A program made the position numbers and the translations under genes. Shown here one piece after another: positions 22,391-60,319 of a stretch of 64,000 bases of DNA. The notes beneath the pieces are model-generated. The model did no database searches and was not told the DNA's origin. It saw only the letters and a list, made by a program, of their open reading frames with translations. The first letter of the stretch is position 1. Every line of letters starts with the position of its first letter. The DNA is from Verrucomicrobiota bacterium (GTDB lineage Bacteria > Verrucomicrobiota > Kiritimatiellia > RFP12 > UBA1067), in assembly GCA_050874585.1 (NCBI GenBank), contig JBNMKZ010000006.1, positions 134-64,133 of the forward strand, written 5' to 3'.

Positions 22391-22426
22391 GGAATGTGGC
22401 GGTGAATGCCCCACATTCCTTTTGGT
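22391..22426 (+). terminator. rho-independent terminator after rnd
   Basis: Stem GGAATGTGG (22391-22399) pairs with CCACATTCC (22411-22419). The 11-nt loop is followed by TTTTGG. Confidence 0.7.
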
Positions 22427-22448
22427 ATTGTACGTTTCATCGCGAGCG

Positions 22449-22624
22449 CGGCAAGACGCAGGAGCGCGGCGAAATGTCCGCAGGACCTGACGCGTTCCTG
22501 CGCATCAACGCGGGCATTCCTCCGCATCAACGAGCGTAATCCTCCGCATCAACGAGTCCAAATCATCCCTTGAAAAAGGGTCAATCAAGGCGTCAACAAG
22601 GCTCAACTAAGGCTAAGTAAACCT
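22449..22624. repeat. 22-bp phased repeat array followed by 11-bp sub-repeats
   Basis: Cores GACGCA 22455, TCCGCA 22477, TGCGCA 22499, TCCGCA 22521 and TCCGCA 22543. The last three units are near-identical (TTCCTSCGCATCAACGMG). They are followed by TCAATCAAGGC / GTCAACAAGGC / TCAACTAAGGC at an 11-bp period (22581-22613). Confidence 0.8.
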
Positions 22625-22683
22625 TTGTTGTCGAGGCGCGAGAGGTGAGCGCAACCGTGGAAGCCGAGACCGAGCGACAGCTT

Positions 22684-22719
22684 CGCGCAAGCCCCCGAGC
22701 AAGCGGTTTTTGGTATAAT
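22684..22719 (+). promoter_or_regulatory. conserved promoter cassette ending in TGGTATAAT (leaderless configuration)
   Basis: Sequence CGCGCAAGCCCCCGAGCAAGCGGTTTTTGGTATAAT, with TATAAT at 22714-22719. There are 8 nt between the box and the trmB ATG 22728. Confidence 0.6.
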
Positions 22720-22727
22720 ATGCGCAC

Positions 22728-23441
22728 ATGAGGATCACATCGACAACTGAGTGCGTCATTCGCGTGACGGATCCCTGCAAACCGCTGGAATTTGACCTTT
22801 CGCGTCCCCTCGAAATCGAGGTCGGGTGCGGGAAGGGCCGTTTCCTGACGGCACGGGCCGCCGCGCACCCGGAATGCGACTTCCTGGGCATCGAGCGGAT
22901 GCTTGGCCGCGTACAGAGCTTTGAGGGGAAGTGTGCGCGGAAGGGGCTGTGCAATGCGCACGTTTTGCGCCTTGAGGCGCTCTATACATTCCATTATCTC
23001 CTACCAGCGCACCATGCCCGGACGGTCTACGTGTTCTTTCCCGATCCGTGGCCGAAGAAACGCCACCACTCGCACCGGCTGTTCGGTCCGCTCTTCCTGA
23101 ATGCGCTCTGGAAGCGCCTTGAGGTGGGCGGTCGGCTGGAGTTCGCGACGGACCATGCGGAATACTTCGGGGTCGTCTGCGAATGCTTTGCGGCGGATTC
23201 GCGCTTTCGCCGCGTTGAGCCGATGCCGCGTCCGAAGGAGGTCTGGACGGAGTTCGAGACATCCTTCCGCGAGAAGGGTCTCCCCATTTACAGTGCGGCG
23301 TGGCAATCGCTCCCGGCGGACGATGCCCCGCTTGAACCGCTGACCATTCCGCCGGAGGCCGAGCCTCGTGAAGGGGTCGTCAGAAGATACGAAACAGCAG
23401 AAGCCGCAGGTGCAGAAGCAGAAGAATCAGAGGAAGAATGA
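22728..23441 (+). CDS. trmB: tRNA (guanine-N7)-methyltransferase
   Basis: Contains EVGCGKGRF (SAM motif) and the FFPDPWPKKRHHSHRL signature. The C-terminus carries an acidic tail. Confidence 0.9.
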   Translation: MRITSTTECVIRVTDPCKPLEFDLSRPLEIEVGCGKGRFLTARAAAHPECDFLGIERMLGRVQSFEGKCARKGLCNAHVLRLEALYTFHYLLPAHHARTVYVFFPDPWPKKRHHSHRLFGPLFLNALWKRLEVGGRLEFATDHAEYFGVVCECFAADSRFRRVEPMPRPKEVWTEFETSFREKGLPIYSAAWQSLPADDAPLEPLTIPPEAEPREGVVRRYETAEAAGAEAEESEEE

Positions 23442-27799: not shown

Positions 27800-28297
27800 A
27801 TGGAGGCGTTTACGATTCGACAGGCGCGGCTGGCGGATGCCGAGCGGGTGTTCAGGTTCATTCTCGGGAACAGCGACCTTCTTGTGCCGCGCTCCCTTGG
27901 TAATGTCGTCGAGAACATCGACCGCTTTTTCGTTGCCGAGGTCGGCGAGGCCCTTGTCGGCTGTGCGGCCTATCAGGTGCACCCCGAAATCGGCGACGTG
28001 CAGGCGGCGACGGTCGAGATACAGTCCGTCGCCGTCGACGCGGCGCACCGCAAGCTTGGCATCGGGCGAGCGCTCGTCGAGGCCGTGGTCGCCCGATCGG
28101 CGCAGTTCGGCCCGCGTGAGGTGCTGGTGCTGACGTTCGCGCCGGAATTCTTCACGAAGCTTGGCTTCCACGAGATACCGAAGACGCGCGTCATGCACAA
28201 GCTCTACACGGGGTGCATCAACTGCACGAAGCACACGAACCCTTTCACCTGCCCGGAAATCGCGATGAAACGCGACCTTCCTCAGAATATGGTATAA
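27800..28297 (+). CDS. GNAT family N-acetyltransferase
   Basis: In-frame ATG 27800, 2 nt after the helicase stop. Acetyl-CoA motif QSVAVDAAHRKLGIGRALV. Cys-rich C-terminus CINCTKHTNPFTCPE. Confidence 0.8.
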   Translation: MEAFTIRQARLADAERVFRFILGNSDLLVPRSLGNVVENIDRFFVAEVGEALVGCAAYQVHPEIGDVQAATVEIQSVAVDAAHRKLGIGRALVEAVVARSAQFGPREVLVLTFAPEFFTKLGFHEIPKTRVMHKLYTGCINCTKHTNPFTCPEIAMKRDLPQNMV

Positions 28298-28298
28298 T
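28290..28298 (+). promoter_or_regulatory. extended -10 promoter TGGTATAAT
   Basis: TATAAT at 28293-28298 contains the GNAT stop codon TAA (28295-28297). It lies 42 nt before ATG 28341, which has the AAGGAGG RBS. Confidence 0.55.
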
Positions 28299-28340
28299 CT
28301 CACTCACCTAAACGGATAAACAACTAAAGGAGGCTCGAAG

Positions 28341-30996: not shown

Positions 30997-32856
30997 GTGA
31001 AAATCGGCAAGCGGCTGAAACTCGACGTTTACGGCGAATCGCATGCACCGGCAATCGGCATGCGAATGGAGGGCTTTCCGCCCGAACTGACCATTGACAG
31101 GGCGGAGCTTCAGGCCTTTATGGAGCGTCGCGCTCCGGGGCGTGACGCGCTCTCAACGGCGCGGCGCGAGCCGGATGTGCCGGAGTTCCTCTCCGGGCTT
31201 TCGGGTGATGTGACGACAGGCGGAGTGATTGAGGCGATTATCCGCAACACCGACACGCGGAGCCGCGACTACGAGAAGACCGTGCCGCGTCCGGGGCACG
31301 CGGATTATCCGAACTGGGTGAAGAATGGGCGAATCCCCGCCGGCGGTGGGGCGAACTCGGGGCGGTTGACGGCGGCGATGTGCATCGCGGGCGGACTCTG
31401 CCTGCAGGCCCTCGCCAAGCGCGGCATTGCCGTGAAGGCGCGCATTGAGCGTGTCGGCGACGCGGCGGCGGCCAAGTCGGAGGGCGATTCGGTCGGCGGC
31501 ATCATCGCGGCGGAAGTGACCGGACTCCCGGTCGGACTGGGCGGACCGATGTTCGACGGGCTGGACGGTGCGCTTGCCGAGGCCATCTTCGGAATCCCCG
31601 GCGTGAAGGGCATCGAGTTCGGCAACGGTTTTGCCGCGAGCGGGCTGAAGGGGTCGGAGAACAACGACCCGTTCGTCGTGCGCGAGGGGCGCGTTGTGAC
31701 GCTCACGAACAACCACGGCGGCATTCTTGGCGGCATGACGAGTGGGATGCCGCTCGTCTTTCGTGTGGCGATGAAGCCGACGCCCTCCATCTACAAGCCC
31801 CAGCGGAGCGTCGACTTGGCGACAATGAAGGAGGTCGAGTTCCGTGTGCGCGGTCGGCACGACCCGTGCATCGCCTTCCGTGCGGTGCCGGTGGTGGAAG
31901 CCCTGACGGCCTTTACGATTCTGGATGCCCTGCTGGTCGAGGAGAGCGGCATCGAGTTTCGGTCGATTCCGCAGGACTTGCGCAACATCGTGATTGACGA
32001 GACGGTGGCGAAACTTTACCCCGCGCTTGCGGAACGGGCGATTTGCGTGATTCCGTCCGGCGAGGAGCACAAGACGATTGGCACGGTCGGACGGATTTGG
32101 AGTGCCTTTGCGAAGGCCGGGATTGGGCGCAAGGATACGGTCGTGGCCATCGGCGGCGGCGTGACGGGCGACCTGACGGGATTCGCGGCGGCGACGTGGA
32201 TGCGCGGCATCGACTGGGTCAATGTGCCGACGACCCTGCTGGCGATGGTGGATGCCTCGTATGGCGGCAAGACCGCCTGCGATCTTGCGGAGGGCAAGAA
32301 CCTGGCGGGGGCCTTCCATCCGCCGCGTCGGGTCATCATTGACGTCAACTTCCTGAAGACGCTGCCGCCGCGGCGGCTGGCGGATGGCCGTGCCGAGATG
32401 ATCAAGCACGAGGTCATCGGCGGTCTTGCCCGCACGGCCGATGTCGCGGCGTTTCCGCCCGCCGAGGAGATTCGCCGCAATCTCGCGGTCAAGGTCGCCG
32501 TCGTGCGGCGCGATCCGCAGGAGCGCACGGGCGAGCGCATGAAGCTGAACGCGGGGCACACGGTGGGCCATGCCGTCGAGAAGGCGAGCGACTACCGAAT
32601 CTCGCATGGTGAAGCCGTGGCCATCGGGTGCGTGGCCGAGGCGCGGCTTGCCGTGGAGAAGGGCCTTGCCGAACCGGCGTTCGTGGCTGAACTCGCGGCG
32701 CGGTTCACGGCGGCGGGACTGCCGACCGAACTCCCCGAGGGCATGACATTTGATAACCTGAAGCCCATCATGGCGGGCGACAAGAAGCGCGAGGGCAAGA
32801 CGGTCGTCTTCGCGCTGCCGTGTGGATGGGGTGACGTGAGGGCGGTGAGGATTTAA
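30997..32856 (+). CDS. aroC-aroB: bifunctional chorismate synthase / 3-dehydroquinate synthase fusion
   Basis: N-terminal ~325 aa carry YGESHAPAIG, RPGHADY and RGRHDPC (AroC). The C-terminal part carries EEHKT, VAIGGGVTGDLTGFAAAT, VPTTLLAMVDASYGGKTA and GKNLAGAFHPP (AroB). Confidence 0.9.
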   Translation: MKIGKRLKLDVYGESHAPAIGMRMEGFPPELTIDRAELQAFMERRAPGRDALSTARREPDVPEFLSGLSGDVTTGGVIEAIIRNTDTRSRDYEKTVPRPGHADYPNWVKNGRIPAGGGANSGRLTAAMCIAGGLCLQALAKRGIAVKARIERVGDAAAAKSEGDSVGGIIAAEVTGLPVGLGGPMFDGLDGALAEAIFGIPGVKGIEFGNGFAASGLKGSENNDPFVVREGRVVTLTNNHGGILGGMTSGMPLVFRVAMKPTPSIYKPQRSVDLATMKEVEFRVRGRHDPCIAFRAVPVVEALTAFTILDALLVEESGIEFRSIPQDLRNIVIDETVAKLYPALAERAICVIPSGEEHKTIGTVGRIWSAFAKAGIGRKDTVVAIGGGVTGDLTGFAAATWMRGIDWVNVPTTLLAMVDASYGGKTACDLAEGKNLAGAFHPPRRVIIDVNFLKTLPPRRLADGRAEMIKHEVIGGLARTADVAAFPPAEEIRRNLAVKVAVVRRDPQERTGERMKLNAGHTVGHAVEKASDYRISHGEAVAIGCVAEARLAVEKGLAEPAFVAELAARFTAAGLPTELPEGMTFDNLKPIMAGDKKREGKTVVFALPCGWGDVRAVRI

Positions 32857-32859
32857 GAC

Positions 32860-34962
32860 ATGAAGACGCTTTACCTGTATGGTCCGCCGGCGAGCGGAAA
32901 GACGACGCTGGCGCGGAAGCTGGCGCGTGAATTCGGCCGACCGGCCGTCGACCTCGATGCGGAAATCGTGCGGCGCACGGGGCGTTCGATACCCGACATC
33001 TTCGCGGCCGAGGGTGAGGCCAGCTTTCGACGCATCGAGAGCGAGACCCTTCGCGCCGTTTCGGCCCCCATCGTCGCGCTCGGGGGTGGAACGCTTCTAG
33101 ACCCCGCGAACCGCGCCTATGCGGAAGAGAACGGGTTCGTCGTCGTGCTGGACGTGGACGACGAGACGCTGGCGCGGCGGATTGAGGCGGCGCAGGGGAC
33201 GCGTCCGCTTGGCAACCGTGCGGCGGAGCGTCGCGCACACTACGCGTCCTTTCCTCATCATCTTGGGGCAGACGACCGAATCGTTTTGCCGCGTCCGCTC
33301 CGGGGACGCATCACGGTTCCCGTCTCCAAGTCGCATCTCCACCGTCTGCTGATTGCGGAGTTTCTCTCGGGGGCGGCCGTTCCGCCCATTGACGCGGCGG
33401 ACTGCGCCGACATTGCCGCGACGAAGCGGTGTCTTGCGGCGCTACCGACGCCCGCTGCGCGCGGCACGGTGACGGCGGCGACCCTGGACTGCGGTGAAAG
33501 CGGCTCGACACTGCGCTTTCTCGCCCCGCTCGCGGCGGCCCTTGGCGTGAAGGCGACATACGTCCGCCGTGGACGGCTTGCGGAACGACCGATGATTGAC
33601 TACGACGGACTCGCCGCCGGTGTGCACGAGTTGCGCGGCGACGTCTCCAGCCAGTTTGTCACGGGGCTCCTCTTCGCCCTGCCGCTGATGGACGGCGATT
33701 CGGAGATTCGTTTCACCACGCCCCTCCAGTCGCGGGGTTATGTGGACATGACGCTGGACGTGATTCGCGCCTTCGGCATCCGCGTGACGGAAGCCGAATG
33801 GGGCTTTGCCATCCCCGGCAACCAGCGGTACCGTGCGCCTGCGACACCTGTTCAGCCCGAAGGGGACTGGAGCGGCGCGGCCTTCTGGTTCGCGGCGAAT
33901 GCGCTTGGAAGCGAGATTCAGGTGGCGGGACTTGCCGCGAATTCGCACCAGCCCGACCGCGTCGTCTGTGAGCTGATTGACCGCATCCGTGAGGGGCGGG
34001 GGCCCGTGGACGTCTCGGGGTGTCCCGACCTCTATCCTGCCCTGGCCGTCGTCGACGCACTTCTCGGCAAACGGACCGTCTTTACGGGCACGGAACGCCT
34101 GCGAATTAAGGAGTCCGACCGGCTGGCGGCCATGGAGGAGTGGCGGCGTTCGCCGACGGACGTCGACACGAAGGGCGACCACCGCATCGCCATGGCGGCG
34201 GCGATTGCCGCGCTGCATTCGGACTGTCCTGCGCTGATTCACGGGGCCTCGTGCGTGTCCAAGTCGTATCCGGGCTTCTGGGACGAACTGCACATGGACC
34301 TCTATCTCGTCACGGGGTGGCCGCTCGTCAAGACGCGTAGCCCCGAGATTCACAATGCCGCCTATGCCGCCGAAGGGCGAAAGGCAGAGATGATTTCCTA
34401 TCCGTCCGAGACGATTGAGGGGGCGATGGCGTTTGCTGCGCTGGCGGACGTGAAGGGCATGGCCGTGACGATTCCGCACAAGCTGAGCGTCATGCCGCTT
34501 TTGGACGAAATCGACCCGGCGGCCCGGGCCATTGGTGCTGTGAATACGGTCGTCTTCCGCGCGGGGCGGAAGTATGGCTACAACACCGATGCGGATGGAT
34601 TTGCGGAGGCTCTGCTGGCCTTTTGCGGACGCGCCGATCTCGCCGGGATGTCGGTGGCCCTTTTGGGCGCGGGCGGTGCGGCGAAGGCCGTCGACTACGC
34701 CCTCCGGCGGCTGGGGGCGAAGGTGTCAACCTATCATCGCCGTCCGCTTGATAGGGCGCCGGACATTATCGTCAACGCAACGCCGGTCGACCCGATACCG
34801 GATTACGCCTTTACGGGACGCGAGCTTGTCTACGACCTGCGCTACGTTCCGGCCGAAACGCCGCTGATGGCGCGTGCGCGGGCGGCCGGTTGCCGGGTCG
34901 AGAATGGGTTTTCCATGCTGCAGGCACAGGCGCGTGGCCAGCGGCGGCTCTTTTTCGGCTGA
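32860..34962 (+). CDS. aroK-aroA-aroE: trifunctional shikimate kinase / EPSP synthase / shikimate dehydrogenase fusion
   Basis: GPPASGKTT + DLDAEI (AroK). SKSHLHRLLI, CGESGSTLRFLAPLAA and RIKESDRL (AroA). SPEIHNAAY, VTIPHK, GAVNTV and GYNTDADGF (AroE). Confidence 0.88.
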   Translation: MKTLYLYGPPASGKTTLARKLAREFGRPAVDLDAEIVRRTGRSIPDIFAAEGEASFRRIESETLRAVSAPIVALGGGTLLDPANRAYAEENGFVVVLDVDDETLARRIEAAQGTRPLGNRAAERRAHYASFPHHLGADDRIVLPRPLRGRITVPVSKSHLHRLLIAEFLSGAAVPPIDAADCADIAATKRCLAALPTPAARGTVTAATLDCGESGSTLRFLAPLAAALGVKATYVRRGRLAERPMIDYDGLAAGVHELRGDVSSQFVTGLLFALPLMDGDSEIRFTTPLQSRGYVDMTLDVIRAFGIRVTEAEWGFAIPGNQRYRAPATPVQPEGDWSGAAFWFAANALGSEIQVAGLAANSHQPDRVVCELIDRIREGRGPVDVSGCPDLYPALAVVDALLGKRTVFTGTERLRIKESDRLAAMEEWRRSPTDVDTKGDHRIAMAAAIAALHSDCPALIHGASCVSKSYPGFWDELHMDLYLVTGWPLVKTRSPEIHNAAYAAEGRKAEMISYPSETIEGAMAFAALADVKGMAVTIPHKLSVMPLLDEIDPAARAIGAVNTVVFRAGRKYGYNTDADGFAEALLAFCGRADLAGMSVALLGAGGAAKAVDYALRRLGAKVSTYHRRPLDRAPDIIVNATPVDPIPDYAFTGRELVYDLRYVPAETPLMARARAAGCRVENGFSMLQAQARGQRRLFFG

Positions 34963-35175: not shown

Positions 35176-35221
35176 CTCGGGGGCTTGCGCGTCGGGCGAG
35201 CCCCCGAGCAGGCGGTTTTTT
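35176..35221 (+). terminator. hairpin + T-tract (possible aro operon terminator overlapping the tyrS promoter)
   Basis: Perfect 10-bp stem CTCGGGGGCT (35176-35185) / AGCCCCCGAG (35199-35208) with a 13-nt loop. A T6 run at 35216-35221 also forms the T-tract of the next promoter. Confidence 0.45.
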
Positions 35222-35229
35222 GGTATAAT
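35221..35229 (+). promoter_or_regulatory. extended -10 promoter TGGTATAAT (leaderless configuration)
   Basis: TATAAT at 35224-35229, with 8 nt between the box and the tyrS ATG 35238. The upstream cassette GGGCGAGCCCCCGAGCAGGCGGTTTTTT is homologous to 60-90 and 22684-22710. Confidence 0.6.
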
Positions 35230-35237
35230 ACCCAAAT

Positions 35238-36503
35238 ATGAAACTACTTGACGAATTGAAGGCTCGTGGACTTGTTGAGGCTCTGACCGATCCGGCGATT
35301 GAGGCGGCGTTGGAGAAGCCGATGACGGTTTATTGCGGATTCGATCCTTCCGCCCGCTCCCTGCAGGCGGGCAACCTCGTGTCCATCATGGTCCTGAAGC
35401 GGTTTCAGCAGGCCGGGCACAAGGTCATAGCCCTCGTCGGGGGCGCGACGGGGCTGATTGGCGACCCGAGCGGAAAGTCCGCCGAGCGCAACATGCTGAC
35501 GGTTGAGCAGGTGGCGGAGAACAAGAAGGGCATTCGTGAGAACTTGGCCCGAATCCTCGATTTCGACGGCCCGAACGCGGCGATTCTCGTCGACAACTAC
35601 GACTGGTACAAGGGCACGAGCGCGATTGAGTTCCTGCGCGACATCGCCATCAACTTCCGTGTGCCGCAGATGCTGGCGAAGGAGTCCGTGCGCAAGCGTT
35701 TAGAGGCGAGCGAGGGTGCCCTGACCTTTACGGAATTCTCCTACCAGATTCTGCAGGGCAACGACTTCTTGCACCTCTACGACAACTACGGCTGCCAGAT
35801 GGAGGTCGGCGGGGCCGACCAGTGGGGCAACATCACGGCGGGGACGGATCTCGTGCGGCGGATGCGCGGCAAGTCGGCCTTCGGCCTGACGTTCCCGCTG
35901 CTTCTCGACTCGACGGGCAAGAAGTTCGGCAAGTCCGAGGGCAACGCGCTCTTTCTGAACGGCGAAATGACGTCCGTCTACGATTGGTACCAGTACTTCC
36001 TGCGCGCGGCGGATGCCGATGTCATCCGTTACCTGAAGGTCTTCTCGATGAAGTCGCTTGACGAGATTGCCGAACTGGAGGCCGCGATGAAGCGGAATCC
36101 CGAGGCGCGGATTCCCCAGAAGGCGCTGGCGGAGGAGTTGACGCGTCTCGTGCATGGCGAGGCGGGGCTTCAGACGGCGCTCGGCGCGACGAAGACGCTC
36201 TTTGGCGGGGATGTCGCGGGCAAGTCGGCGGATGAGCTTGAGACAATTTTCAAGGATGTGAAGTCCGCCGAGATGGCCGCAGGTGACGTTCTCGGCAAGC
36301 CGGTCTTTGCCGTGGCGGCGGCGGCCGGGATGTTCAAGTCCAACGGCGAAGCGCGGCGGATGGCCCAGCAGGGCGGGCTCTCGCTGAACGGCACGAAGGT
36401 CGACGACAAGCGCGTTTTCGCGGCGGACGATCTCGTGGACGGTCGGATTGCCATCCTGAAGCAGGGCAAAAAGAACAACTTCCTTCTGAAGATTAAGGCT
36501 TGA
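35238..36503 (+). CDS. tyrS: tyrosine--tRNA ligase (HIGH motif replaced by QAGN)
   Basis: Contains GGATGLIGDPSGKSAER, GGADQWGNITAG and KFGKS (KMSKS), with an S4-like C-terminus. The position of HIGH reads SLQAGNL (35358-35378). Confidence 0.9.
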   Translation: MKLLDELKARGLVEALTDPAIEAALEKPMTVYCGFDPSARSLQAGNLVSIMVLKRFQQAGHKVIALVGGATGLIGDPSGKSAERNMLTVEQVAENKKGIRENLARILDFDGPNAAILVDNYDWYKGTSAIEFLRDIAINFRVPQMLAKESVRKRLEASEGALTFTEFSYQILQGNDFLHLYDNYGCQMEVGGADQWGNITAGTDLVRRMRGKSAFGLTFPLLLDSTGKKFGKSEGNALFLNGEMTSVYDWYQYFLRAADADVIRYLKVFSMKSLDEIAELEAAMKRNPEARIPQKALAEELTRLVHGEAGLQTALGATKTLFGGDVAGKSADELETIFKDVKSAEMAAGDVLGKPVFAVAAAAGMFKSNGEARRMAQQGGLSLNGTKVDDKRVFAADDLVDGRIAILKQGKKNNFLLKIKA

Positions 36504-40303: not shown

Positions 40304-41488
40304 ATGACCGTTTGGATTGAGAACCCGTTCGACAACCTGCCGCGTGAGGGGTCGCGTCCGCTTCGGTTCTGGCTGATGGCCCGGGCCTTCGTGCAGGCGG
40401 GGCATCGGGTGGTCTACTGGACGAGCGACTTCAGCCATACGGCGAAGGCGCGGCGGAATTTGCCGACGGCCTTCACGGACGAGGGCGTGGCCGTGCGGCT
40501 CGTACCGACGCCGCCCTACCGAACGAACGTCAGCCTGGCGCGGATTCGCAGTCACCGCGCCTATGCGCGGGCCTGGGAGGCGGCCGCCAGTGCGACGGAT
40601 TTGTCCGCTCCGAACGCGATCATCGTCTCCACGCCGCCGCTTGCGACGGGGGACATGGCGATTCGCCTGGCGCGGCGGTTTGGGGGGCGGCTTGTCGTGG
40701 ACGTGATGGACGCCTGGCCCGAGACCTTTTACCGGCTCCTGCCGACCTTCGCGGCCCCGCTGCTTGGGCGGATGCTGTTCGCGTCCGCCGACGCGGCGGC
40801 GCGGCGGCTTTACCGGGCGGCGGATCTTGTGACGGGCGTCGCCGACCGCTATGGGGCGATAGCCCGTTCGAAGGGGGCGACCTCGTATCGGCGCTTCTAT
40901 CACGGCATCGACTGTGCGGCCGCCCCCGCCCGGATCGAGGGACGGCGGGCAGGCGTTGCGCTCGTCTACATCGGGAACATGGGTACGACCTACGACCTTC
41001 AGACGCTCGTGCAGGCAATGGAACTTTTGCCGACGGCCACGCTGGATCTCGCTGGGGCGGGTGCACAGGCCGAGGCGGTCGTGCGGCTCATCCGCGAACG
41101 GGGCCTGGTGGAGCGCGTCCGCTACCACGGCTACCTGAAGGCGGCCGACATGGCCGACCTCCTCAGCCGGGCCGACATCGGGGTCGTCCCCATGGCGAGC
41201 GAGAGCTTCGTGGGCGTACCCTACAAGTTCGCCGATTACGCGGCGGCGGGATTGGCCATCGTCAGTTCGCTCGGGGGCGAAACCGAAGACCTGTTGCGGA
41301 AATATGGCGCGGGGGCCGTCTACCGCTGGGGGAACGCTCGCTCGCTTGCGACGGCGGTGGACTCGCTGGTGCCGCGTCTCGCGGCGGCGCAGGCCGCCTC
41401 GCGGCGGCTGGCGCACGAGGAACTCGATGCGCGGCAGATTTATGCGGACTATGTCCGGGCCGTCGAGCGGTTGGTGTCGGAGTCCTGA
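40304..41488 (+). CDS. glycosyltransferase family 4 (GT-B fold)
   Basis: Size and the C-terminal region (YIGNMG ... GVVPMASESFVGVPYKFADYAAAGLAIV) fit a GT4 glycosyltransferase. Confidence 0.8.
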   Translation: MTVWIENPFDNLPREGSRPLRFWLMARAFVQAGHRVVYWTSDFSHTAKARRNLPTAFTDEGVAVRLVPTPPYRTNVSLARIRSHRAYARAWEAAASATDLSAPNAIIVSTPPLATGDMAIRLARRFGGRLVVDVMDAWPETFYRLLPTFAAPLLGRMLFASADAAARRLYRAADLVTGVADRYGAIARSKGATSYRRFYHGIDCAAAPARIEGRRAGVALVYIGNMGTTYDLQTLVQAMELLPTATLDLAGAGAQAEAVVRLIRERGLVERVRYHGYLKAADMADLLSRADIGVVPMASESFVGVPYKFADYAAAGLAIVSSLGGETEDLLRKYGAGAVYRWGNARSLATAVDSLVPRLAAAQAASRRLAHEELDARQIYADYVRAVERLVSES

Positions 41489-41545
41489 CCGCCGCGTCGC
41501 GGCGGAATAATCAGAAGATTCGGAGGATGAGCCTGTCGGCGGCCC

Positions 41546-41809
41546 GTCGTGTGCCGTTGGACGGGCTGGCCCTTGCGCACGGGAAGGGAGCCCCGTGCGC
41601 ATACGGGACTCCCGTTGTGCGCAGGCGGGGCTTCTGTCGTGCGCATCTCGCGAAGTTCCTATGCCCATCGGAAGAAAACTTACTGCCCAGTAACTTTAGA
41701 CTTACTGCCCAGTAAGTTTTGATTTACTGCGCAGTAAGTCTGTCGCCGATGGGCATCGGAATCGCGGCGACTGCCCAAAGGTTTCGCGGCGGATGCCGAT
41801 GGTCGCCGC
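41546..41809. repeat. twelve consecutive 22-bp phased palindromic units
   Basis: Core hexamers start at 41552, 41574, 41596, 41618, 41640, 41662, 41684, 41706, 41728, 41750, 41772 and 41794. They read TGCCGT, TGCGCA x4, TGCCCA x3, TGCGCA, TGGGCA, TGCCCA and TGCCGA. Three units are 14-bp perfect palindromes TTACTGSSCAGTAA. Confidence 0.9.
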
Positions 41810-41973
41810 GGCGGAGGGTGTTTATTCCGGTTTCTTGTCGGTTTGTGAATGAAATCTTGCGCTTTTGTCGCCTTCGTGGCTTGGGCGGACGGCAATTCCG
41901 CCGCGCCCAACGGGTGCAGACACCGCCACATCTTCGCCGCGAGAGGCATCCACTATCAATGTCGCCGCATAAA

Positions 41974-41982
41974 TGATAGAAT
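41974..41982 (+). promoter_or_regulatory. possible extended -10 promoter TGATAGAAT
   Basis: TG at 41974-41975 and TAGAAT at 41977-41982, in a low-GC patch about 55 nt before ATG 42036. Confidence 0.35.
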
Positions 41983-42035
41983 AGCGGCACTTCTTGAAAG
42001 AGAACAGACCCTTGTATGGAAAGCGAGGTGAGTTT

Positions 42036-42239
42036 ATGGCTACATCGAGTATAACTGCGAACTTTTGCACTGACGACCCCAAGGTCGCCAACAAGATTGT
42101 TCATACCTTATTTACAGACATGAAACCGTCATCCAAATTGCCGACGGCTCTCCATTCGGAGAGGAAGTACACGTCAGCACAGGAACGCGCTTTCTGGCGG
42201 CGATTTGAAAAGGTGCATGGATTGATGGCGAACGCATGA
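42036..42239 (+). CDS. small hypothetical protein (67 aa) in low-GC patch
   Basis: In-frame ATG 42036 lies 5 nt after GAGGTG (42025-42030). Protein MATSSITANFCTDDPKVANKIVHTLF... has no family I recognise. Confidence 0.4.
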   Translation: MATSSITANFCTDDPKVANKIVHTLFTDMKPSSKLPTALHSERKYTSAQERAFWRRFEKVHGLMANA

Positions 42240-42385
42240 TCAATTCAATGAGATAATAGGCTGATAGGTCGGTTGCAGTCGCGGTATTCATTCAAAAGTG
42301 GCTCGTCCAGTTGTGCAAACGCGGGAGAGTTGGTGTAGAATATCCACAGTTGCGAAAAGGCAAGTCATTGTGTGAGGAACTAACC

Positions 42386-56637: not shown

Positions 56638-57398
56638 CGGGACGGGTCTTCGAGATTCGCGAATTTACCCTCCAGGACGGGCCGGGCATCCGCACGACCG
56701 TCTTTTTCAAGGGCTGTCCGCTGAAGTGCGCCTGGTGCCACAATCCGGAAGGGCAGTCCCACGAGATCGAGTTCATGACGCGTCCCTCGGGGGAAAAGGT
56801 CCGGTGCGGGGCGGATTGGACGGCGGAAGCCCTGGCCACCGAACTCCTGCGGAATGCGGACATCATGTCCGCCTCGGGCGGCGGCATCACCTTTTCGGGT
56901 GGCGAACCCCTGATGCAGGCCGAATTTCTCCTTTCGCTCATTGACGCGATTCGGTCGCGCCCGGAGTCGAAGGGCGTTGGGCTTGCAATTGAGACGAGCG
57001 GCTACTGCCCTCAGTCGACCTACGCGGCGGTTGTTTCGCGGCTCGATTTCGTCTATCAGGACCTGAAGCATCATTCAGTGGCGGACTTTCGGAAATGGAC
57101 GGGTGGCGACCTTGGGGTCGTTTTGGAGAACATCGCCTGGCTGAAGGCGAGTGGCATCGCCTACCGCATTCGCGTACCGCTGATCCCGGGGGTAAACGAT
57201 GCTCCGGCCGACCGTGCCGCCTTGGAGAATCTGATTGGCGATTCACCCGTCGAGTGGCTGCCCTATAACGCGGCGGCTGGTGCCAAGTACCCCCTCTTGG
57301 GGCGGACCTATCCTCTCGCGGCGGAATTCCGATGCCCGTCGGATGGAATTCTGATGCCCGTCGGAAAAATTTCTGATGGGCATCAGAAAACGCTCTGA
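56634..57398 (+). CDS. glycyl-radical enzyme activating protein (radical SAM)
   Basis: GPGIRTTVFFKGCPLKCAWCHNPE (CX3CX2C) and GGITFSGGEPL. In-frame ATG 56634 overlaps the GRE stop (ATGA). The last ~24 codons lie in the 22-bp repeat array. Confidence 0.9.
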   Translation: MTGRVFEIREFTLQDGPGIRTTVFFKGCPLKCAWCHNPEGQSHEIEFMTRPSGEKVRCGADWTAEALATELLRNADIMSASGGGITFSGGEPLMQAEFLLSLIDAIRSRPESKGVGLAIETSGYCPQSTYAAVVSRLDFVYQDLKHHSVADFRKWTGGDLGVVLENIAWLKASGIAYRIRVPLIPGVNDAPADRAALENLIGDSPVEWLPYNAAAGAKYPLLGRTYPLAAEFRCPSDGILMPVGKISDGHQKTL

Positions 57399-57458
57399 TG
57401 GGCATCAGAAAGGACGCCAATGCCCATTAGACGGGGCGGAGTTCCCCACGGGCAGGTT
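57327..57458. repeat. 22-bp phased palindromic array (homologous to 13535-13622)
   Basis: Cores TGCCCG 57333, TGCCCG 57355, TGGGCA 57377, TGGGCA 57399, TGCCCA 57421 and degenerate TCCCCA 57443. Arms include TTCCGA/TCGGA and TTCTGA/TCAGAA. Confidence 0.85.
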
Positions 57459-57482
57459 GGATGCCTCTCGCGCGCATATTTT

Positions 57483-57491
57483 TGGTATAAT
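57483..57491 (+). promoter_or_regulatory. extended -10 promoter TGGTATAAT (leaderless configuration)
   Basis: Sequence ATTTTTGGTATAAT, with TATAAT at 57486-57491. There are 7 nt between the box and ATG 57499. Confidence 0.6.
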
Positions 57492-57498
57492 ACGGCCC

Positions 57499-57777
57499 AT
57501 GAAACGAAGTGAATTGGAGGAGGAGATTCGGCAGGTCATTCTGTCTTCCGTAGAGGTTGACGGACTGACTGCGGCGGATCTGGCGGCCGATCAACCGCTC
57601 TTTGGGGACGGGATCGGCTTGGATAGCATTGATGCACTGGAAATCGGCGCCGCGCTCCGTAAGAAGTATCAGGTCAAGTTTAAGGCGAATTCCAGCGAGA
57701 ATCGCGTCCATTTCCGGACGATTGCCTCGTTGGCGGACTTTATCGCCGCGAATGCCGGGATTACCATTGAGGACTGA
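57499..57777 (+). CDS. acyl carrier protein (first of tandem pair)
   Basis: 92 aa, with GLDSIDALE (phosphopantetheine Ser). In-frame ATG 57499 chosen over 57376, which runs through the repeat array and the promoter. Confidence 0.85.
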   Translation: MKRSELEEEIRQVILSSVEVDGLTAADLAADQPLFGDGIGLDSIDALEIGAALRKKYQVKFKANSSENRVHFRTIASLADFIAANAGITIED

Positions 57778-57779
57778 AA

Positions 57780-58037
57780 ATGAAGACAAAAGAAGAGATT
57801 TTGGAAGCGATTAAGGGCGTTTTGGTCAGCGAATTCGAGTGCGACCCCGCATCGCTCGTGCCCGAGGCGCGGCTTTATGAGGATCTTGACCTCGACAGCA
57901 TCGACGCGGTCGACCTGATCGTCAGGCTTCAGAACCAGACGAAGCTGAAGGTCAAGGCCGAGGACTTCAAGTCGATTCGCACGTTGGGCGACGTCGCCGG
58001 GGTAATCGAGAAACTGATGATTGAGCAGGGGAAGTGA
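57780..58037 (+). CDS. acyl carrier protein (second of tandem pair)
   Basis: 85 aa, with DLDSIDAVD. Starts 2 nt after the first ACP stop. Confidence 0.85.
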   Translation: MKTKEEILEAIKGVLVSEFECDPASLVPEARLYEDLDLDSIDAVDLIVRLQNQTKLKVKAEDFKSIRTLGDVAGVIEKLMIEQGK

Positions 58038-58414
58038 TGAAGCGAGTCCTGCCGGCTCTTCTGGTCGTCTGGGCGCTTTACTTCCTGAAGGCAAGGGTCT
58101 GGTTTCGCCTTTATCCGGCGGTCATGGTTGCCCTTGCCCTCGTTCTTTTTTCCGTTTCGCTCTTTCGCACGCCGTTTGTGGAGGTTTTTGCCCGCAAGAT
58201 GGGGGAGAAACTGGACGCGAGGGGCGTCTTGTATTGCCGAAAGGTGACGCGGGTGTGGGTCGCCTTCCTCTCCGTTCACCTGGTTGTGACGGTCGCCACT
58301 GTTTTCCTCTCGCGTGAGATTTGGGTGTTTTACAACGGTTTTCTCTCCTATGTCCTGATGGGGTCGCTTCTACTCGGCGAGCGGCTGTATCGGCGAAAGG
58401 TTCATCGTGTCTGA
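58034..58414 (+). CDS. small integral membrane protein (APE-cluster COG4648-like position)
   Basis: Four hydrophobic segments. GTG 58034 or ATG 58037 overlaps the ACP stop. Assignment rests on position within the cluster. Confidence 0.6.
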   Translation: MMKRVLPALLVVWALYFLKARVWFRLYPAVMVALALVLFSVSLFRTPFVEVFARKMGEKLDARGVLYCRKVTRVWVAFLSVHLVVTVATVFLSREIWVFYNGFLSYVLMGSLLLGERLYRRKVHRV

Positions 58415-59723
58415 TGTCATATTCAAAACGTCCGGCTCCACGGGGGCGGCGAAGGAAATCGTCCGTAGCGAGGAGTCGCTCCTGTCGGATGCAAGGTCGC
58501 TCGTCAAGGCGTTTCCGGATGTCTGGGCGGGGGCTCCTGAGGTCGTCTCGTCGGTCCCGACCAATCATATGTACGGGGCGCTTTGGCGCGTCCGCGCCCC
58601 ATCTGTTGCGGGGTGTCGGGTCAATCCTGCCGTGCTGCTGTCGGTCGAGGAACTGATGGAAGCCTGCCGTGGGGCGGCGCGGGCCGTTTTCGTGACGACA
58701 CCCTCCTTTCTTGAAAAGGCGTTGCTTCATCCAGATTTTGCACATTTAAGGGGACGGCTGACGGCCATTGTCACGGCTGGCAGTGAACTCCGCGAGGGGA
58801 CGGCCTTGGCCGTTGCCGATGTGGTTGGGGTGTGCCCGCTGGAGATTTTCGGGAGCACCGAGACGGGAACCGTGGCCTGGCGGCGGCGGACGGAAGGGGA
58901 CGAGTGGACGCTCGTCGAAGGCGTGTCGGCACGATTGGCGGACGGGGGCGGACTTGAGGTTGATTCGCCGTTCGCGATGAGCCGCCCGTACGTGATGTCC
59001 GATGGTGTGGAATTTACGGCGGCCAACCGCTTTCGCCTGCGGGGTCGGCTCGATCGGCGCGTCAAGATTCTGGAGGAGTTCGTCTCGCTCCCGGCGGTTG
59101 AGGCGGCGTTGGAGGCGTTGCCGCTCGTGGCGCAGGCGCGTGTCGAGGCCTATGGCGCGGATGTTCCTCGGTTAGGGGCTGTCCTCGTCCTGACGGAACG
59201 GGGCGTGAACATCCTCAGGCGGTCGACCTACGCCGAGTTGAGCGGCCAAATCCGCCGCGACTTGTTTGCAACCTTGCCGGGGATTGCCGTTCCTCGGCGC
59301 TTCCGTTTTGTGCGCGAATTGCCCGTCAATGAGCGCGGCAAGACGGCGGCGGGGGATGTTCGGGCGATCCTTTCGGCGAATTGGCAGGAGCCGGTCGTCT
59401 TCGACTGGACGCTTGCGCCGGGCGAACTTTCGACCAACCTCGTCTTTCCGCCCGATTCCGAGTGCTTTCGCGGACATTTCCCCAGCTTTCCGATTCTGCC
59501 GGGGGTGGCGCAGCTCTTCTACGTCTGCCATTTTGCGCGGCAGGTCTTCCCCGACTTCCCCACGACGCAGACCTATCGGCGGCTGAAGTTCCAGAAGGTC
59601 GTCTTTCCGGCGGATGTCATCCGCCTGACCGTGGCGCGGCGTTCGGAAGGGGGCTTTTCCTTCGCTCTCGTGGGGGAACATGGCCCATGCGCCTCGGGAC
59701 TGATTGAGGAGACGTGCCGATGA
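58407..59723 (+). CDS. AMP-dependent ligase fused to FabA/FabZ-like hotdog dehydratase
   Basis: KTSGSTGAAKEIV (AMP-binding), FGSTETG and NERGKT. C-terminal FRGHFPSFPILPGVAQL is the hotdog dehydratase motif. Confidence 0.82.
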   Translation: MSDVIFKTSGSTGAAKEIVRSEESLLSDARSLVKAFPDVWAGAPEVVSSVPTNHMYGALWRVRAPSVAGCRVNPAVLLSVEELMEACRGAARAVFVTTPSFLEKALLHPDFAHLRGRLTAIVTAGSELREGTALAVADVVGVCPLEIFGSTETGTVAWRRRTEGDEWTLVEGVSARLADGGGLEVDSPFAMSRPYVMSDGVEFTAANRFRLRGRLDRRVKILEEFVSLPAVEAALEALPLVAQARVEAYGADVPRLGAVLVLTERGVNILRRSTYAELSGQIRRDLFATLPGIAVPRRFRFVRELPVNERGKTAAGDVRAILSANWQEPVVFDWTLAPGELSTNLVFPPDSECFRGHFPSFPILPGVAQLFYVCHFARQVFPDFPTTQTYRRLKFQKVVFPADVIRLTVARRSEGGFSFALVGEHGPCASGLIEETCR

Positions 59724-60319
59724 AGCGGTTCTTGTTTCTTCTGTCCGTTGTTGGGCTGTCCGTCGCCTCCGCTTGTGCGGAGGCATTGCCCGTACGCTGT
59801 GTGGAGGCCTTTCGTCGGGCATTAGACGCGGATGCCGCGTGGACGCTTGAGCGCCGCTTGGCGGGGTCCGAGCGGACGCTTGTCTCAACGGGACTTGTCT
59901 CCTGTGCCGCCGGGCGCGGCATCGTCTGGGATGTGCGCGCACCATTTCCCTCCGTCGTGCACATGACGACGAACGCCATGGTTTTTGTGGATGAGGACGG
60001 ACGGCGCGAGAAGACGCTGGACGACTTGCCGCACTATGCCGAAATCCGCGCCCTGACGGATGCATTCGTCGCCGGGGACGAGAAGGCCTTCGACGGGGTG
60101 TTTGAACTGGAGGCGGAAGCACAGGCATCTGACGGATGGCGGATTCGTCTGGTGCCGGAGGTTCGAGCCATGCGTCGGCTTTTCGCCAGCATCGAGCTCG
60201 CGGGGGCCGAGACGCTGACCAACGTTGTCCTGAAATCGGGGGACGGCGGAACATCGACCATCCGCTTTCGTGAGCTGTCGCGGGGTGGGCATCTCCTCTG
60301 GAAGGATTCCGTGCCGTGA
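59720..60319 (+). CDS. LolA-like lipoprotein-carrier family protein (tentative)
   Basis: Signal peptide MKRFLFLLSVVGLSVASACA, about 200 aa. It occupies the LolA-like slot of aryl-polyene clusters. ATGA overlap (the alternative GTG 59714 is also possible). Confidence 0.5.
   Translation: MKRFLFLLSVVGLSVASACAEALPVRCVEAFRRALDADAAWTLERRLAGSERTLVSTGLVSCAAGRGIVWDVRAPFPSVVHMTTNAMVFVDEDGRREKTLDDLPHYAEIRALTDAFVAGDEKAFDGVFELEAEAQASDGWRIRLVPEVRAMRRLFASIELAGAETLTNVVLKSGDGGTSTIRFRELSRGGHLLWKDSVP

Follow-up and report, generated by a model that had tools for sequence, protein, structure and literature searches.

Phased TGSSCA-centred palindromes downstream of genes in a Kiritimatiellia genome: a possible REP/BIME-like repeat family

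What kind of element is the run of short palindromes found at positions 41546–41809 of the 64,000-nucleotide stretch of Verrucomicrobiota (Kiritimatiellia) DNA analysed here, referred to below as the window? An earlier note, made from the letters of this DNA, had listed twelve core hexamers phased at 22 bp. The positions and sequences of all the hexamers were correct, every step was 22 bp, and the palindromes that it quoted were found: TTACTGCCCAGTAA (twice), TTACTGCGCAGTAA, CCGATGGGCATCGG and TATGCCCATCGG. This array, named array C, contains twelve units at a uniform 22-bp pitch (41552–41799) in a total stretch of 264 bp; ten of its twelve cores match the consensus TGSSCA, and its arms vary in sequence from unit to unit while keeping their self-complementarity. 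The best reading of these 264 bp is that modules C1 and C2, which lie side by side in them, belong to a dispersed repeat family with multiple copies. The features of the locus are the following:

41489–41505, plus strand: G+C-rich hairpin CCGCCGCGTCGCGGCGG, abutting the stop codon of a glycosyltransferase gene (40304–41488).
41552–41653, no strand assigned: module C1, five units at 22-bp pitch; the core at 41552 is TGCCGT, and those at 41574, 41596, 41618 and 41640 are TGCGCA.
41654–41809, no strand assigned: module C2, seven units that continue the phase of C1; the cores are TGCCCA at 41662, 41684 and 41706, TGCGCA at 41728, TGGGCA at 41750, TGCCCA at 41772 and TGCCGA at 41794.
41812–41839, plus strand: weak terminator-like hairpin with a T-rich tail, directly 3′ of array C (consensus match only, 5-bp stem).

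The spacers of C1 are G+C-rich, and their pairing is mostly from spacer to spacer across the module and less around each core. The arms of C2 are A+T-rich and strongly self-complementary, and this module holds a long palindrome (41656–41761) with 52-nt arms centred on the 41706 unit. Array C is non-coding: every ORF overlapping it is short or antisense, in line with the earlier note, which had seen no credible ORF there. The minimum free energy of its predicted fold is −159 kcal/mol for the plus strand and −142 kcal/mol for the minus strand, with z about −9 in both cases, so that the sense strand is predicted to fold more stably than the antisense strand by 17 kcal/mol. The motif CGCGGCGGA is present also at 13525 and at 57317, in each case ahead of an array. 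Its tie to the arrays is uncertain, and this 9-mer was rejected as a leader of the element because its 33 copies in the coding DNA of the window make it non-diagnostic.

Chance can be excluded as the source of the pattern, since the window contains 14 occurrences of TGSSCA-N16-TGSSCA, whereas 0.08 would be expected (sd 0.31; maximum of 2 in 100 shuffles). The spacings between TGSSCA sites peak at 22, 44, 66, 88 and 110 bp, with 14, 12, 8, 6 and 5 pairs, respectively, while every other spacing in the window is represented by at most one pair. A lag autocorrelation blind to the core, run on the window, picked out lag 22 at 41514–41836, 57247–57503 and 22424–22649, with values of 0.62–0.70 versus a shuffle maximum of 0.51. 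Nor is array C an artefact of assembly, as had been considered. Two Logan contigs (L001 and L002) are 100% identical to it up to 41690, both ending inside array C, and a 93%-identical relative (L229) has all twelve units with no indel.

Two further arrays, overlooked in the earlier note, occur in the window, one at 13541–13810 (in two parts, 13541–13612 and 13739–13810) and one at 57333–57426, together with a degenerate one at 22499–22548. With their full extents, they are:

13533–13620, no strand assigned: array A1, four units with cores TGCCCG at 13541, TGGGCA at 13563, TGCCCG at 13585 and TGCCCA at 13607.
13731–13818, no strand assigned: array A2, four TGCGCA cores (13739–13810), with arms that are not palindromic.
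22491–22556, no strand assigned: array B, three direct repeats of 22 bp, TGCGCA at 22499 and TCCGCA at 22521 and 22543.
57311–57435, no strand assigned: array D, five units with cores at 57333, 57355, 57377, 57399 and 57421.

All the arrays of the window are directly downstream of genes. Array A1 is an 80% paralogue of the 57311–57435 module (positions 13530–13632 aligned), and A2 is in phase with A1, the distance from 13607 to 13739 being 6 × 22 bp. The spacers of A2 have copies, with about 81% identity, in two loci of a Hadza MAG, another Kiritimatiellaeota genome. In array D the first two units are CC-centred and the next two GG-centred, so that the module would fold into a hairpin of about 40 bp; its predicted fold has −68.8 kcal/mol and z = −9. 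A called radical-SAM CDS ends within array D, from which about 22 of its codons, the last ones, and its stop codon at 57398 are derived. The arms of array B are not palindromic, and its membership of the family is doubtful.

Concerning the architecture of the unit, its 22 bp are made up of a palindrome of 18 bp (N6-TGSSCA-N6) and, after it, a linker of 4 nt. The best core is TGCGCA, with TGCCCA and TGGGCA as one-step variants. In 327 distinct units, collected with a search pattern that imposed the TGSSCA core and the 22-bp pitch, the arm positions ±1 to ±6 pair with frequencies of 0.74, 0.71, 0.66, 0.50, 0.61 and 0.48 (about 0.28 expected), and positions ±7 and ±8 pair at chance level. Among 138 diverse units, 68.3% of the cells are paired versus 51.5 ± 1.1 after shuffling, and the covariation score is 0.442 versus 0.173 with shuffled partners, a value of 0.442 being attained in none of 500 shuffles; with slid partners the score does not exceed 0.19. 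All four Watson-Crick pair types are present at each arm position, and no column outside TGSSCA is conserved in the alignment. The compensatory variation of the arms around a TGSSCA centre, claimed in the earlier note for array C, is thus genuine and extends far beyond the window. It is worth adding that unit identity within an array may be as low as about 50% with cores and phase intact, that CC- and GG-centred cores are intermixed on one strand within arrays, and that other cores are also seen in tandem palindromic arrays of the same phyla.

The comparison of array C with the same locus of L229, a species-level relative, indicates which part of the unit is retained. Identity is 69/72 in cores, 123/144 in arms and 38/48 in linkers (p = 0.007 for cores against the rest). 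C1 has kept its four TGCGCA cores unchanged and shows no indel, with 78% identity for the module and about 70% for its spacers, while the 41654–41765 part of C2 is 95.5% identical. In the orthologous contigs L220 and L228, array D is retained with four SNPs and no indel. An array, once placed, is therefore passed on vertically without indels, and its cores are the most constrained part.

These data bear on an alternative in which the units are phased sites that are read in the DNA duplex: each TGSSCA dyad would be occupied by a symmetric dimer, for instance a nucleoid-associated protein, a boundary factor or a type II topoisomerase, which would polymerise at 22 bp and mark operon ends as topological or transcriptional boundaries, the arms being a by-product or read by shape. 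CC and GG cores mixed on one strand would be the same site on the duplex and different loops in RNA. In modules A2, L059 and L020 arm pairing is at chance, yet cores and phase are kept, which fits a duplex-binding ruler better than unit hairpins; C1 can be counted with them as a bare-core module holding TGCGCA and the exact phase without arm pairing. The lack of indels over 264 bp between relatives, even with C1 spacers about 70% identical, the common phase of neighbouring modules and the stronger conservation of cores than of arms point in the same direction. A precedent is found in E. coli gyrase, which cleaves preferentially at the intergenic palindromes REP/BIME-2 (PMC6379681), but it is a precedent only, the text of that paper giving no explicit consensus string to set against T/GSSC/A. 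Nevertheless, such an alternative is unlikely. A reader of six bases leaves the strong covariation of the variable arms unexplained, and arrays with the same core at a 23-bp pitch (L089 and L032) mean that 22 bp is no universal ruler. Moreover, the bare-core modules are themselves copies of dispersed repeats with conserved spacers, patchiness among close relatives would be odd for a housekeeping boundary system, and no candidate protein was found. The 23-bp pitch also qualifies the statement of the earlier note that all cores sit on one DNA face, which holds only approximately, since 22 bp are 2.1 helical turns.

Arrays are also dispersed as blocks. The array D module (57311–57435) is 96% identical to positions 2297–2421 of another contig (L009) with unrelated flanks, and in the Bacteroidales chromosome OY781105 one 4-unit module is common to three loci, with similarity that stops at the array borders. 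Blocks of four or five units thus recur as whole modules at unrelated intergenic sites, both within and between related genomes. Their location is not indifferent to gene orientation. Arrays were found in 18 convergent, 24 tandem and 6 divergent gaps, whereas the array-free gaps of at least 120 bp at the same loci were 13, 41 and 28, respectively, giving a convergent versus divergent odds ratio of 6.5 for arrays (p = 0.0009). Arrays therefore prefer convergent gene ends and shun divergent gaps. In the window, four of the six intergenic gaps longer than 150 bp hold arrays, which start 0–150 bp past the upstream stop codon, and the spacing between arrays and the −10 elements that follow them is not constant (65 to about 190 bp).

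A transcript that may fold into a string of short hairpins had been the second suggestion of the earlier note, and an alternative of this kind would take the arrays as 3′ UTR hairpin strings acting only at the level of RNA, by terminating transcription, shielding mRNA from 3′ exonucleases or sequestering an RNA-binding protein through conserved loops, the way in which CsrB sequesters its partner. In addition to the short distance from stop codons and the preference for gene 3′ ends, it can draw on the very stable predicted folds, with the advantage of the sense strand in array C, and on sense-strand G-U pairs arising from TGCCCG core variants and from two of three arm substitutions between relatives. 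It is nonetheless quite improbable that RNA is the whole explanation. The motif is symmetric under reverse complementation, GCCC and GGGC loops are mixed on one strand, the z-scores of both strands are alike, and exact phase is of no obvious use in RNA. In a test for the transcribed strand, G-T outnumbered A-C mismatches by 192 to 163, counts in which copies within an array are not independent, and the bias did not match gene direction consistently (agreement in six arrays, disagreement in four). Six arrays lie in divergent gaps. Scanned against Rfam 15 at the gathering threshold, the arrays of the window and those in 12 carrier loci had no match, and an E-value scan of 41400–42100 gave chance-level values only.

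A pattern scan for the array architecture over 185,579 species genomes showed that it is far more frequent than expected by chance. Bacteroidota or PVC bacteria account for 77 of 118 among the matches listed, and several genomes contribute three to five separate matches apiece. Cultured carriers include Hoylesella marshii DSM 16973, Porphyromonas crevioricanis ATCC 55563, Epilithonimonas mollis DSM 18016, Chryseobacterium sp. Leaf180 and Parabacteroides sp. ASD2025. No TGSSCA/22 array was found in other Kiritimatiellia in 469 kb of JGI metagenomes comprising 80 orthologous loci fetched via the glycosyltransferase; these loci, all at most 58% identical, yielded patchiness and no insertion breakpoints. 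The distribution among lineages is patchy. A literature search for tandem palindromes of 22 bp between the genes of Bacteroidetes or PVC bacteria gave no description of these arrays.

In Actinomycetota, Myxococcota and some other phyla, many of the sequences that match the pattern are plain minisatellites without palindromes. This would fit an alternative in which the arrays are neutral minisatellites, the functionless product of replication slippage, kept palindromic by hairpin-templated mutation and with no dedicated protein. The ending of short-read contigs at arrays would also suit this proposal. It is very improbable, considering that units within an array may share only about 50% identity and still have intact cores and phase, that cores exceed arms and linkers in conservation with an unchanged number of units between relatives, that one multi-unit module occurs at unrelated loci, and that all four pair types co-vary.

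The leading idea of the earlier note was an iteron or operator array. An alternative along this line would be integrated iterons of a replication origin, or a centromere of plasmid or phage type. Tandem repeats of 22 bp do look like iteron arrays, and in a phage family (L206 and L208) TGCGCA arrays lie between a primase-helicase gene, which they directly follow, and a winged-helix gene, a likely origin. For the arrays of the window, this idea is hardly tenable. There are three or four of them in 64 kb of a housekeeping chromosome that lacks rep, par and phage genes; their neighbours are housekeeping genes, and neither replication nor partition genes were found near them. They have many copies per genome, arm sequences that differ from array to array, and a preference for gene 3′ ends without a constant distance to promoters, and BLAST of plasmid and phage records gave no match to arrays C and D. 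An operator array of one regulator was likewise rejected: a single regulator that reads sequence would not tolerate arms that differ between the arrays of one genome, divergent gaps are depleted, and the distance to the −10 element varies as indicated above.

A protein that could mobilise or bind the arrays was sought in several ways. No transposase or RAYT was found in the proteins encoded in the window, and no cas domain among the scanned proteins. All-against-all BLASTP of the ORFs of about 80 carrier loci showed no family recurrent beside arrays beyond generic ones. A regular expression for HUH...Y run over 1.58 Mb gave one match, a RAYT-like ORF located 1.1 kb from an array in one locus (L053). 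On present evidence this gene was rejected as the mobiliser, as its family (762 relatives) occurs in polysaccharide operons without flanking arrays and was not flanked by arrays in three other contexts.

With respect to the ends of the element, comparison of copies and flanks revealed neither target-site duplications nor terminal inverted repeats, and likewise no leader and no tail, and the 138-unit alignment contains no conserved GTAG or CGTC tag. Candidate terminal inverted repeats around array C were discarded because their pairs (41489–41499/41804–41814 and 41503–41513/41819–41829) cross instead of being nested. The possibility that the units are the interior of a mobile element bounded by such repeats, which the earlier note had put forward against itself, was not borne out, as similarity between copies ends at the array borders. 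No polymorphism between filled and empty sites was captured, and what points to mobility is solely the sharing of modules between sites with unrelated flanks, from which we infer that they may move. The other statement of the earlier note, that the arrays belong to no described repeat class, stands in so far as they are not tagged REPs, CRISPRs or MITEs bounded by terminal inverted repeats. It is too strong in another sense, because their multiple copies, modules at unrelated loci, patchiness and location after genes amount to REP/BIME-like or BrickBuilt-like behaviour.

Taking together the observations on dispersal, position and covariation, the explanation proposed, with about even confidence, is that the arrays are an undescribed REP/BIME-like family of multi-copy dispersed extragenic palindromes recognised through their TGSSCA apex. 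The units would act as DNA structures, and some protein would read the apex in one of two forms: a dyad on the duplex, or a hairpin or cruciform whose GSSC loop is closed by T-A. By analogy with REP elements, which require RAYT transposases and to which gyrase and IHF bind, recognition of the apex could account for both the copying of modules to new sites and the conserved core. Being located in 3′ untranslated regions, the arrays are probably also transcribed into strings of very stable hairpins, and these could serve, as in REP/BIME, as a 3′-end barrier, a terminator or an insulator between operons. Several observations count against this explanation. Adjoining modules are in phase (C1/C2 and A1/A2), which independent insertion does not predict, and to this are added the negative results on mobilising genes, element ends and tags given above, and the modules with arm pairing at chance.

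A more far-reaching version can be offered tentatively, as possible but rather doubtful. The arrays would be the footprint of a new system common to Bacteroidota and PVC, in which a dedicated protein, distinct both from RAYTs of the GTAG/CGTC type and from IS transposases, recognises the apex of the DNA hairpin or dyad and lays down or maintains units at fixed pitch, so that the host obtains phased structures at operon ends. This would make the arrays a new class of repeat plus protein and not another REP family. REP/BIME with RAYT, the classical example of palindromic repeats that have been domesticated, are essentially proteobacterial. A second architecture across Bacteroidota, the dominant phylum of the gut, and across Kiritimatiellia and Verrucomicrobia would imply a further DNA- or RNA-binding activity and would offer a new handle on operon-end insulation in these bacteria. 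The existence of cultured carriers makes the question directly testable. There are also practical consequences. Short-read contigs end at arrays, which fragment short-read assemblies at operon boundaries, and gene callers may read arrays as spurious C-termini, as in the radical-SAM gene mentioned above.

Concerning known systems, CRISPR repeats of 24–48 bp alternate with unique spacers of similar length, whereas here the units are contiguous at a pitch of 22 bp and only 4 nt link their palindromes. Iterons (e.g. the 22-bp iterons of R6K, or the phage arrays of L206 and L208) are similar in having tandem units of about 22 bp with a short motif on roughly one helix face, but they are identical direct repeats beside a rep gene, with one or a few arrays per replicon, while the arrays studied here are palindromic, have variable arms, are many per chromosome and follow housekeeping genes. 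The BOX elements of Streptococcus pneumoniae are modular, dispersed and intergenic, with a variable number of boxB tandem repeats and stable hairpins; they differ in their boxA and boxC end modules, their 45-bp unit and their phylum, and they have no conserved 6-bp apex at short pitch.

A closer resemblance in arrangement is offered by BrickBuilt, an intergenic MITE with about 19 copies per genome of Porphyromonas gingivalis, the core of which is a spacer-less 23-nt tandem repeat with dyad symmetry, predicted long stem-loops and a variable number of units (PMC4596501). The same paper reports BrickBuilt only in P. gingivalis and P. gulae and mentions uncharacterised 22-nt tandem repeats in strain W83 (PMC4596501). 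Many carriers belong to the same phylum, and the arrays are also tandem, spacer-less, intergenic and multi-copy, with a repeat of 22 bp and 23-bp variants. The difference, as judged from the description of BrickBuilt and not from its repeat sequence, is that it has a leader and a tail with IS5-like terminal inverted repeats, absent here.

Bacteroidetes have REPs of 21–26 nt (PMC6006769, supplement), and the REP of the Bacteroidetes-specific RAYT subclass 2.6 was considered and set aside, being similar in size but not centred on TGSSCA. The likeness to REP/BIME and REPIN in general is wider. These are short imperfect palindromes of 20–40 bp, to be compared with an 18-bp palindrome within 22 bp, and they are also extragenic, numerous in each genome, clustered with mixed orientation, biased to gene 3′ ends and convergent gaps, and patchy in a lineage-specific manner. 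Their stems co-vary between families with a short motif fixed, and inverted pairs give long hairpins in REPINs, as in array D. On the other side, no association with a RAYT was seen in the 1.58 Mb scanned, the carriers belong to Bacteroidota and PVC, and some modules consist of core and phase only. The arrays are further set apart by two properties: the conserved part of the palindrome is its apex, TGSSCA, and not its foot, where REP fixes a GTAG or CGTC tag, and the units abut with a 4-nt linker, strictly phased at 22 bp.

The array that the earlier note had placed at 41546-41809 (array C) was recovered as described: twelve hexamers follow one another in exact 22-bp steps from 41552 to 41794, every palindrome quoted there is present, and no real ORF runs across the region. 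The cores match TGSSCA, the hexamer at the apex of the palindrome, in 10 of the 12 units, the outermost two units having TGCCGT and TGCCGA. A search of Rfam at array C gave no match. Over the whole window, TGSSCA-N16-TGSSCA was observed 14 times (0.08 expected), and the spacings between TGSSCA hexamers pile up at multiples of 22 only. The claimed period of 22 was also found independently of the core, as lag 22 stands out in the autocorrelation at 22424-22649, 41514-41836 and 57247-57503. The arrays of the window are the following:

13541-13612: sister array A1, four units with the 22-bp TGSSCA-type architecture
13739-13810: sister array A2, four TGCGCA cores, in phase with the 13541-13612 block
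22499-22548: array B, degenerate
41546-41809: array C, twelve units
57333-57426: sister array D, five units, e.g., TCTGATGGGCATCAGA

Single, isolated units were not above chance in the window. An assembly artefact, which the earlier note had left as a possible explanation of array C, was ruled out by two Logan short-read contigs (L001 and L002), 100% identical to the window up to 41690, where they end inside the array, and by a relative (L229, glycosyltransferase 93% identical) in which all twelve units are present. Other Logan contigs (L221-L227) start at about 57365-57406, within array D, and such repeated stops within arrays indicate that the repeats break up metagenome assemblies where operons meet. 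Downstream of array C (window 41946-42310 versus L229 3610-3860), similarity to the 93% relative vanishes completely; the promoter-like TGATAGAAT (41964-41972) has no counterpart in L229, and a 67-aa ORF (42036-42239), with no Pfam match and no record elsewhere, is absent from it.

The window derives from the chromosome of a gut Kiritimatiellia (related proteins carry the names Kiritimatiellia or Kiritimatiellae) and has nearly every gene on the + strand. Of its six intergenic gaps above 150 bp, four are filled by arrays, which start 0-150 bp past the upstream stop codon, the preceding genes being a small ORF upstream of aspS, an RNase D-like gene, a GT1 glycosyltransferase and a radical-SAM activase. 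From 57333 to 57398, array D supplies the terminal ~22 codons and the stop codon of the radical-SAM activase as called (254 aa in L220, a contig orthologous around this array); either the native C-terminus was replaced by the array or the gene call overruns into the repeat. Two repeats stand in succession ahead of the trmB promoter (22491-22614): three copies of a non-palindromic direct repeat with period 22 (TCCTSCGCATCAACGAG), then 3.6 copies of an 11-bp repeat (AAGGCTCAAC). Promoters of the type TTTTTGGTATAAT occur at 22685-22730, 35195-35242 and 57478-57501, and also at 13946-13958 and 28287-28299; an ATG (22728, 35238, 57499) only 7-8 nt beyond such promoters suggests leaderless mRNAs. 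Two of them have in common the block GCCCCCGAGCARGCGGTTTTT(T)GGTATAAT, a terminator-like G+C-rich hairpin and T-run fused to an extended -10 element. The window further contains an ORF of 2796 aa and, after it, a TSP3-repeat protein (3953-12343), fused shikimate-pathway genes (30997-34962; chorismate synthase joined to DHQ synthase, and shikimate kinase joined to EPSP synthase and shikimate dehydrogenase) and, beginning directly past array D, an aryl-polyene-like cluster (57499-64000; two ACPs, an ApeI-like AMP-binding enzyme and a LolA_3-like protein).

Concerning the anatomy of the unit, arm pairing in 327 distinct units was 0.74, 0.71, 0.66, 0.50, 0.61 and 0.48 at core-flanking positions 1-6 and fell to chance level at positions 7 and 8, so the unit is an 18-bp palindrome plus a 4-nt linker. 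The compensatory variation of the arms, asserted earlier from array C, was borne out in 138 units picked for diversity: the covariation score was 0.442, against 0.173 ± 0.013 with partners shuffled (0 of 500 shuffles reached 0.442) and at most 0.19 with partners slid by 1-3 columns, and all four Watson-Crick pair types were seen at each arm position. In the same units no column beyond TGSSCA is conserved; the GTAG/CGTC tag is thus absent, and membership of the tagged REP superfamilies fails for lack of it. The core centre in the palindromic class is CG in the majority of units, otherwise CC or GG and nearly never GC, which suggests TGCGCA as the optimal core, with tolerance of one-step variants. 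Array D is predicted to fold into a ~40-bp hairpin (-68.8 kcal/mol). CC- and GG-centred units are intermixed on one strand, some modules, array D for one, arranging them as inverted blocks, and this mixture favours the main rival reading, a duplex-binding 'ruler' in which a protein sits on phased duplex sites; we consider it unlikely.

Modules are dispersed. A copy of the five-unit module 57311-57435 lies between different genes in another Kiritimatiellaeota genome (L009 2297-2421; 96% identity), and the window itself has one at 80% identity (13530-13632). For the 'bare-core' module at 13739-13797, copies at 81% identity exist at two loci of the L009 genome; the existence of bare-core modules also speaks for the duplex ruler. 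In the Bacteroidales chromosome OY781105 one four-unit module occurs at three loci, with similarity ending where the arrays end. The loci compared yielded no case of insertion, target duplication or empty site, and no protein family that recurs beside arrays.

The arrays are also patchy: orthologous loci of other Kiritimatiellia, 469 kb with their surroundings, contained none. In relatives with 73-74% protein identity, the glycosyltransferase is followed by different genes and by short gaps. Between L229 and the window, array C extends over 264 bp without indel, with 69/72 core, 123/144 arm and 38/48 linker positions identical (cores versus the rest, p = 0.007), and its first module (C1, 41552-41653) keeps four TGCGCA cores unchanged while being just 78% identical overall. 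Array D shows four substitutions and no indel in two ENA contigs ~95% identical to the window, the adjacent intergenic flank being more altered. It follows that arrays are inherited vertically once in place, with cores and phase constrained. Phase strictly held between diverged relatives, and adjoining modules meeting in phase, are further points for the duplex ruler. A neutral minisatellite is very unlikely.

With arrays masked ahead of ORF calling, 18 arrays were found in convergent, 24 in tandem and 6 in divergent gaps, compared to 13, 41 and 28 array-free gaps of at least 120 bp at the same loci (convergent versus divergent, odds ratio 6.5, p = 0.0009), a bias whose direction is more reliable than its size because the ORF calls are crude. 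This position, together with some G-U pairs on the sense strand, would suit a role in RNA only, which seems to us rather improbable. In the comparison of G-U with A-C mismatches, the favoured strand matched gene direction in 6 arrays and opposed it in 4.

A scan of 185,579 species, one genome each, for four TGSSCA cores at 22-bp pitch gave at least 118 stretches (about 1 expected by chance). Counted from record titles, the matches listed comprise 56 from Bacteroidota (Prevotella, Paraprevotella, Porphyromonas, Parabacteroides, Chryseobacterium, Flavobacterium, Epilithonimonas, Marinoscillum and others), 21 from PVC bacteria (11 Kiritimatiellia, 8 Verrucomicrobia, 2 Planctomycetota), 10 from gut bins unnamed or evidently mis-binned, and 31 from the remaining phyla, these last mainly non-palindromic minisatellites (inter-unit identity >85%, arm pairing <0.4). 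The Bacteroidota and PVC matches listed resemble the window arrays in that the core is invariant and the arms vary by array and genome while keeping self-complementarity (e.g., TCTGATGCGCATCAGA, GAGATGGGCATCTT, CCAATGGGCATTGG, TTTGGTGCGCACCAAA, GCGAGTGCGCACTCGC), core and pitch being dictated by the search pattern. Tandem arrays of palindromes that have another core or a pitch of 23 bp also occur in the same groups. TGCGCA-centred palindromes (ACATGCGCATGT, GGTTGCGCAACC) with shorter arms and longer linkers recur every 23 bp at L089 891-1038 and L032 4114-4195, and units of 21-24 bp with other cores (GGGGTACGAGCCTCGTACCCC, CTAGATTACTAG, CCGCTCCGGAGCGG) stand in tandem in Kiritimatiellia and Bacteroidales loci (L126 5733-5831, L127 1685-1828, L143 3704-3787, L147 6093-6180, L168 4158-4283, L097 5190-5255, L084 4513-4749). 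These genomes seem to be generally given to short hairpin units in tandem.

The comparison with iterons, drawn in the earlier note, is contradicted by copy number, gene context and arm variability, and that reading is extremely unlikely. A family of G+C-rich phage contigs (L206 4512-4600, L208 2840-3010, L202, L219) does carry TGCGCA at a 22-bp pitch, plus additional copies at ~10 bp; the array, which ends in TGCGCGCAATACAG, lies just past a primase-helicase gene and ahead of a LexA-type winged-helix gene, so these are probably true origin iterons, distinct from window-type arrays.

The window encodes no RAYT, the Y1 transposase of REP elements. Near an array, a single RAYT-like gene turned up (in L053; match to NCBIfam REP_Tyr_transpos, E = 2e-9, below cutoff). 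It is probably not the mobiliser: it belongs to a large Kiritimatiellae family that lies inside polysaccharide-synthesis operons and, in three other contexts, lacks flanking arrays. These HUH/Y1 proteins (L053 2353-3513; L233/L234 2367-3530; 762 relatives, widespread in Kiritimatiellae) have ~200 additional C-terminal residues, and the stop and start codons of their genes overlap those of the operon neighbours. Some contain an in-frame tandem hairpin repeat of 33 bp, TGGCCAAGCTGYGCTTGGCCA, located between their HUH and Tyr motifs (L053 2755-2890; L233/L234 2755-2888) and reminiscent of the REP insertions reported in RAYT subclass 2.4.

Taking together the co-varying palindromes with one fixed motif, the dispersed module copies, the 3'-end preference, the patchiness and the long-hairpin modules, we give about an even chance to array C being two clustered modules from an undescribed family of REP-like repeats. 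A protein would recognise the fixed apex on DNA, either in a hairpin or cruciform or in a dyad of the duplex, and this recognition would underlie module spread and core conservation alike; transcribed arrays would serve as 3'-end hairpin barriers between operons. That TGSSCA arrays reflect a new repeat-plus-protein system is possible, if on the improbable side. Neither Rfam nor the searchable literature yielded a description of these arrays. REP/BIME elements behave in just this combination of ways. The same combination comes close to BrickBuilt, a minisatellite element of Porphyromonas gingivalis (PMC4596501), whose leader, tail and IS5-like ends are all absent from TGSSCA arrays. The closest published statements are the mention of 22-nt tandem repeats for P. 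gingivalis W83 in the BrickBuilt paper (PMC4596501) and a RAYT survey in which the REPs of Bacteroidetes RAYTs are called 'atypical'.
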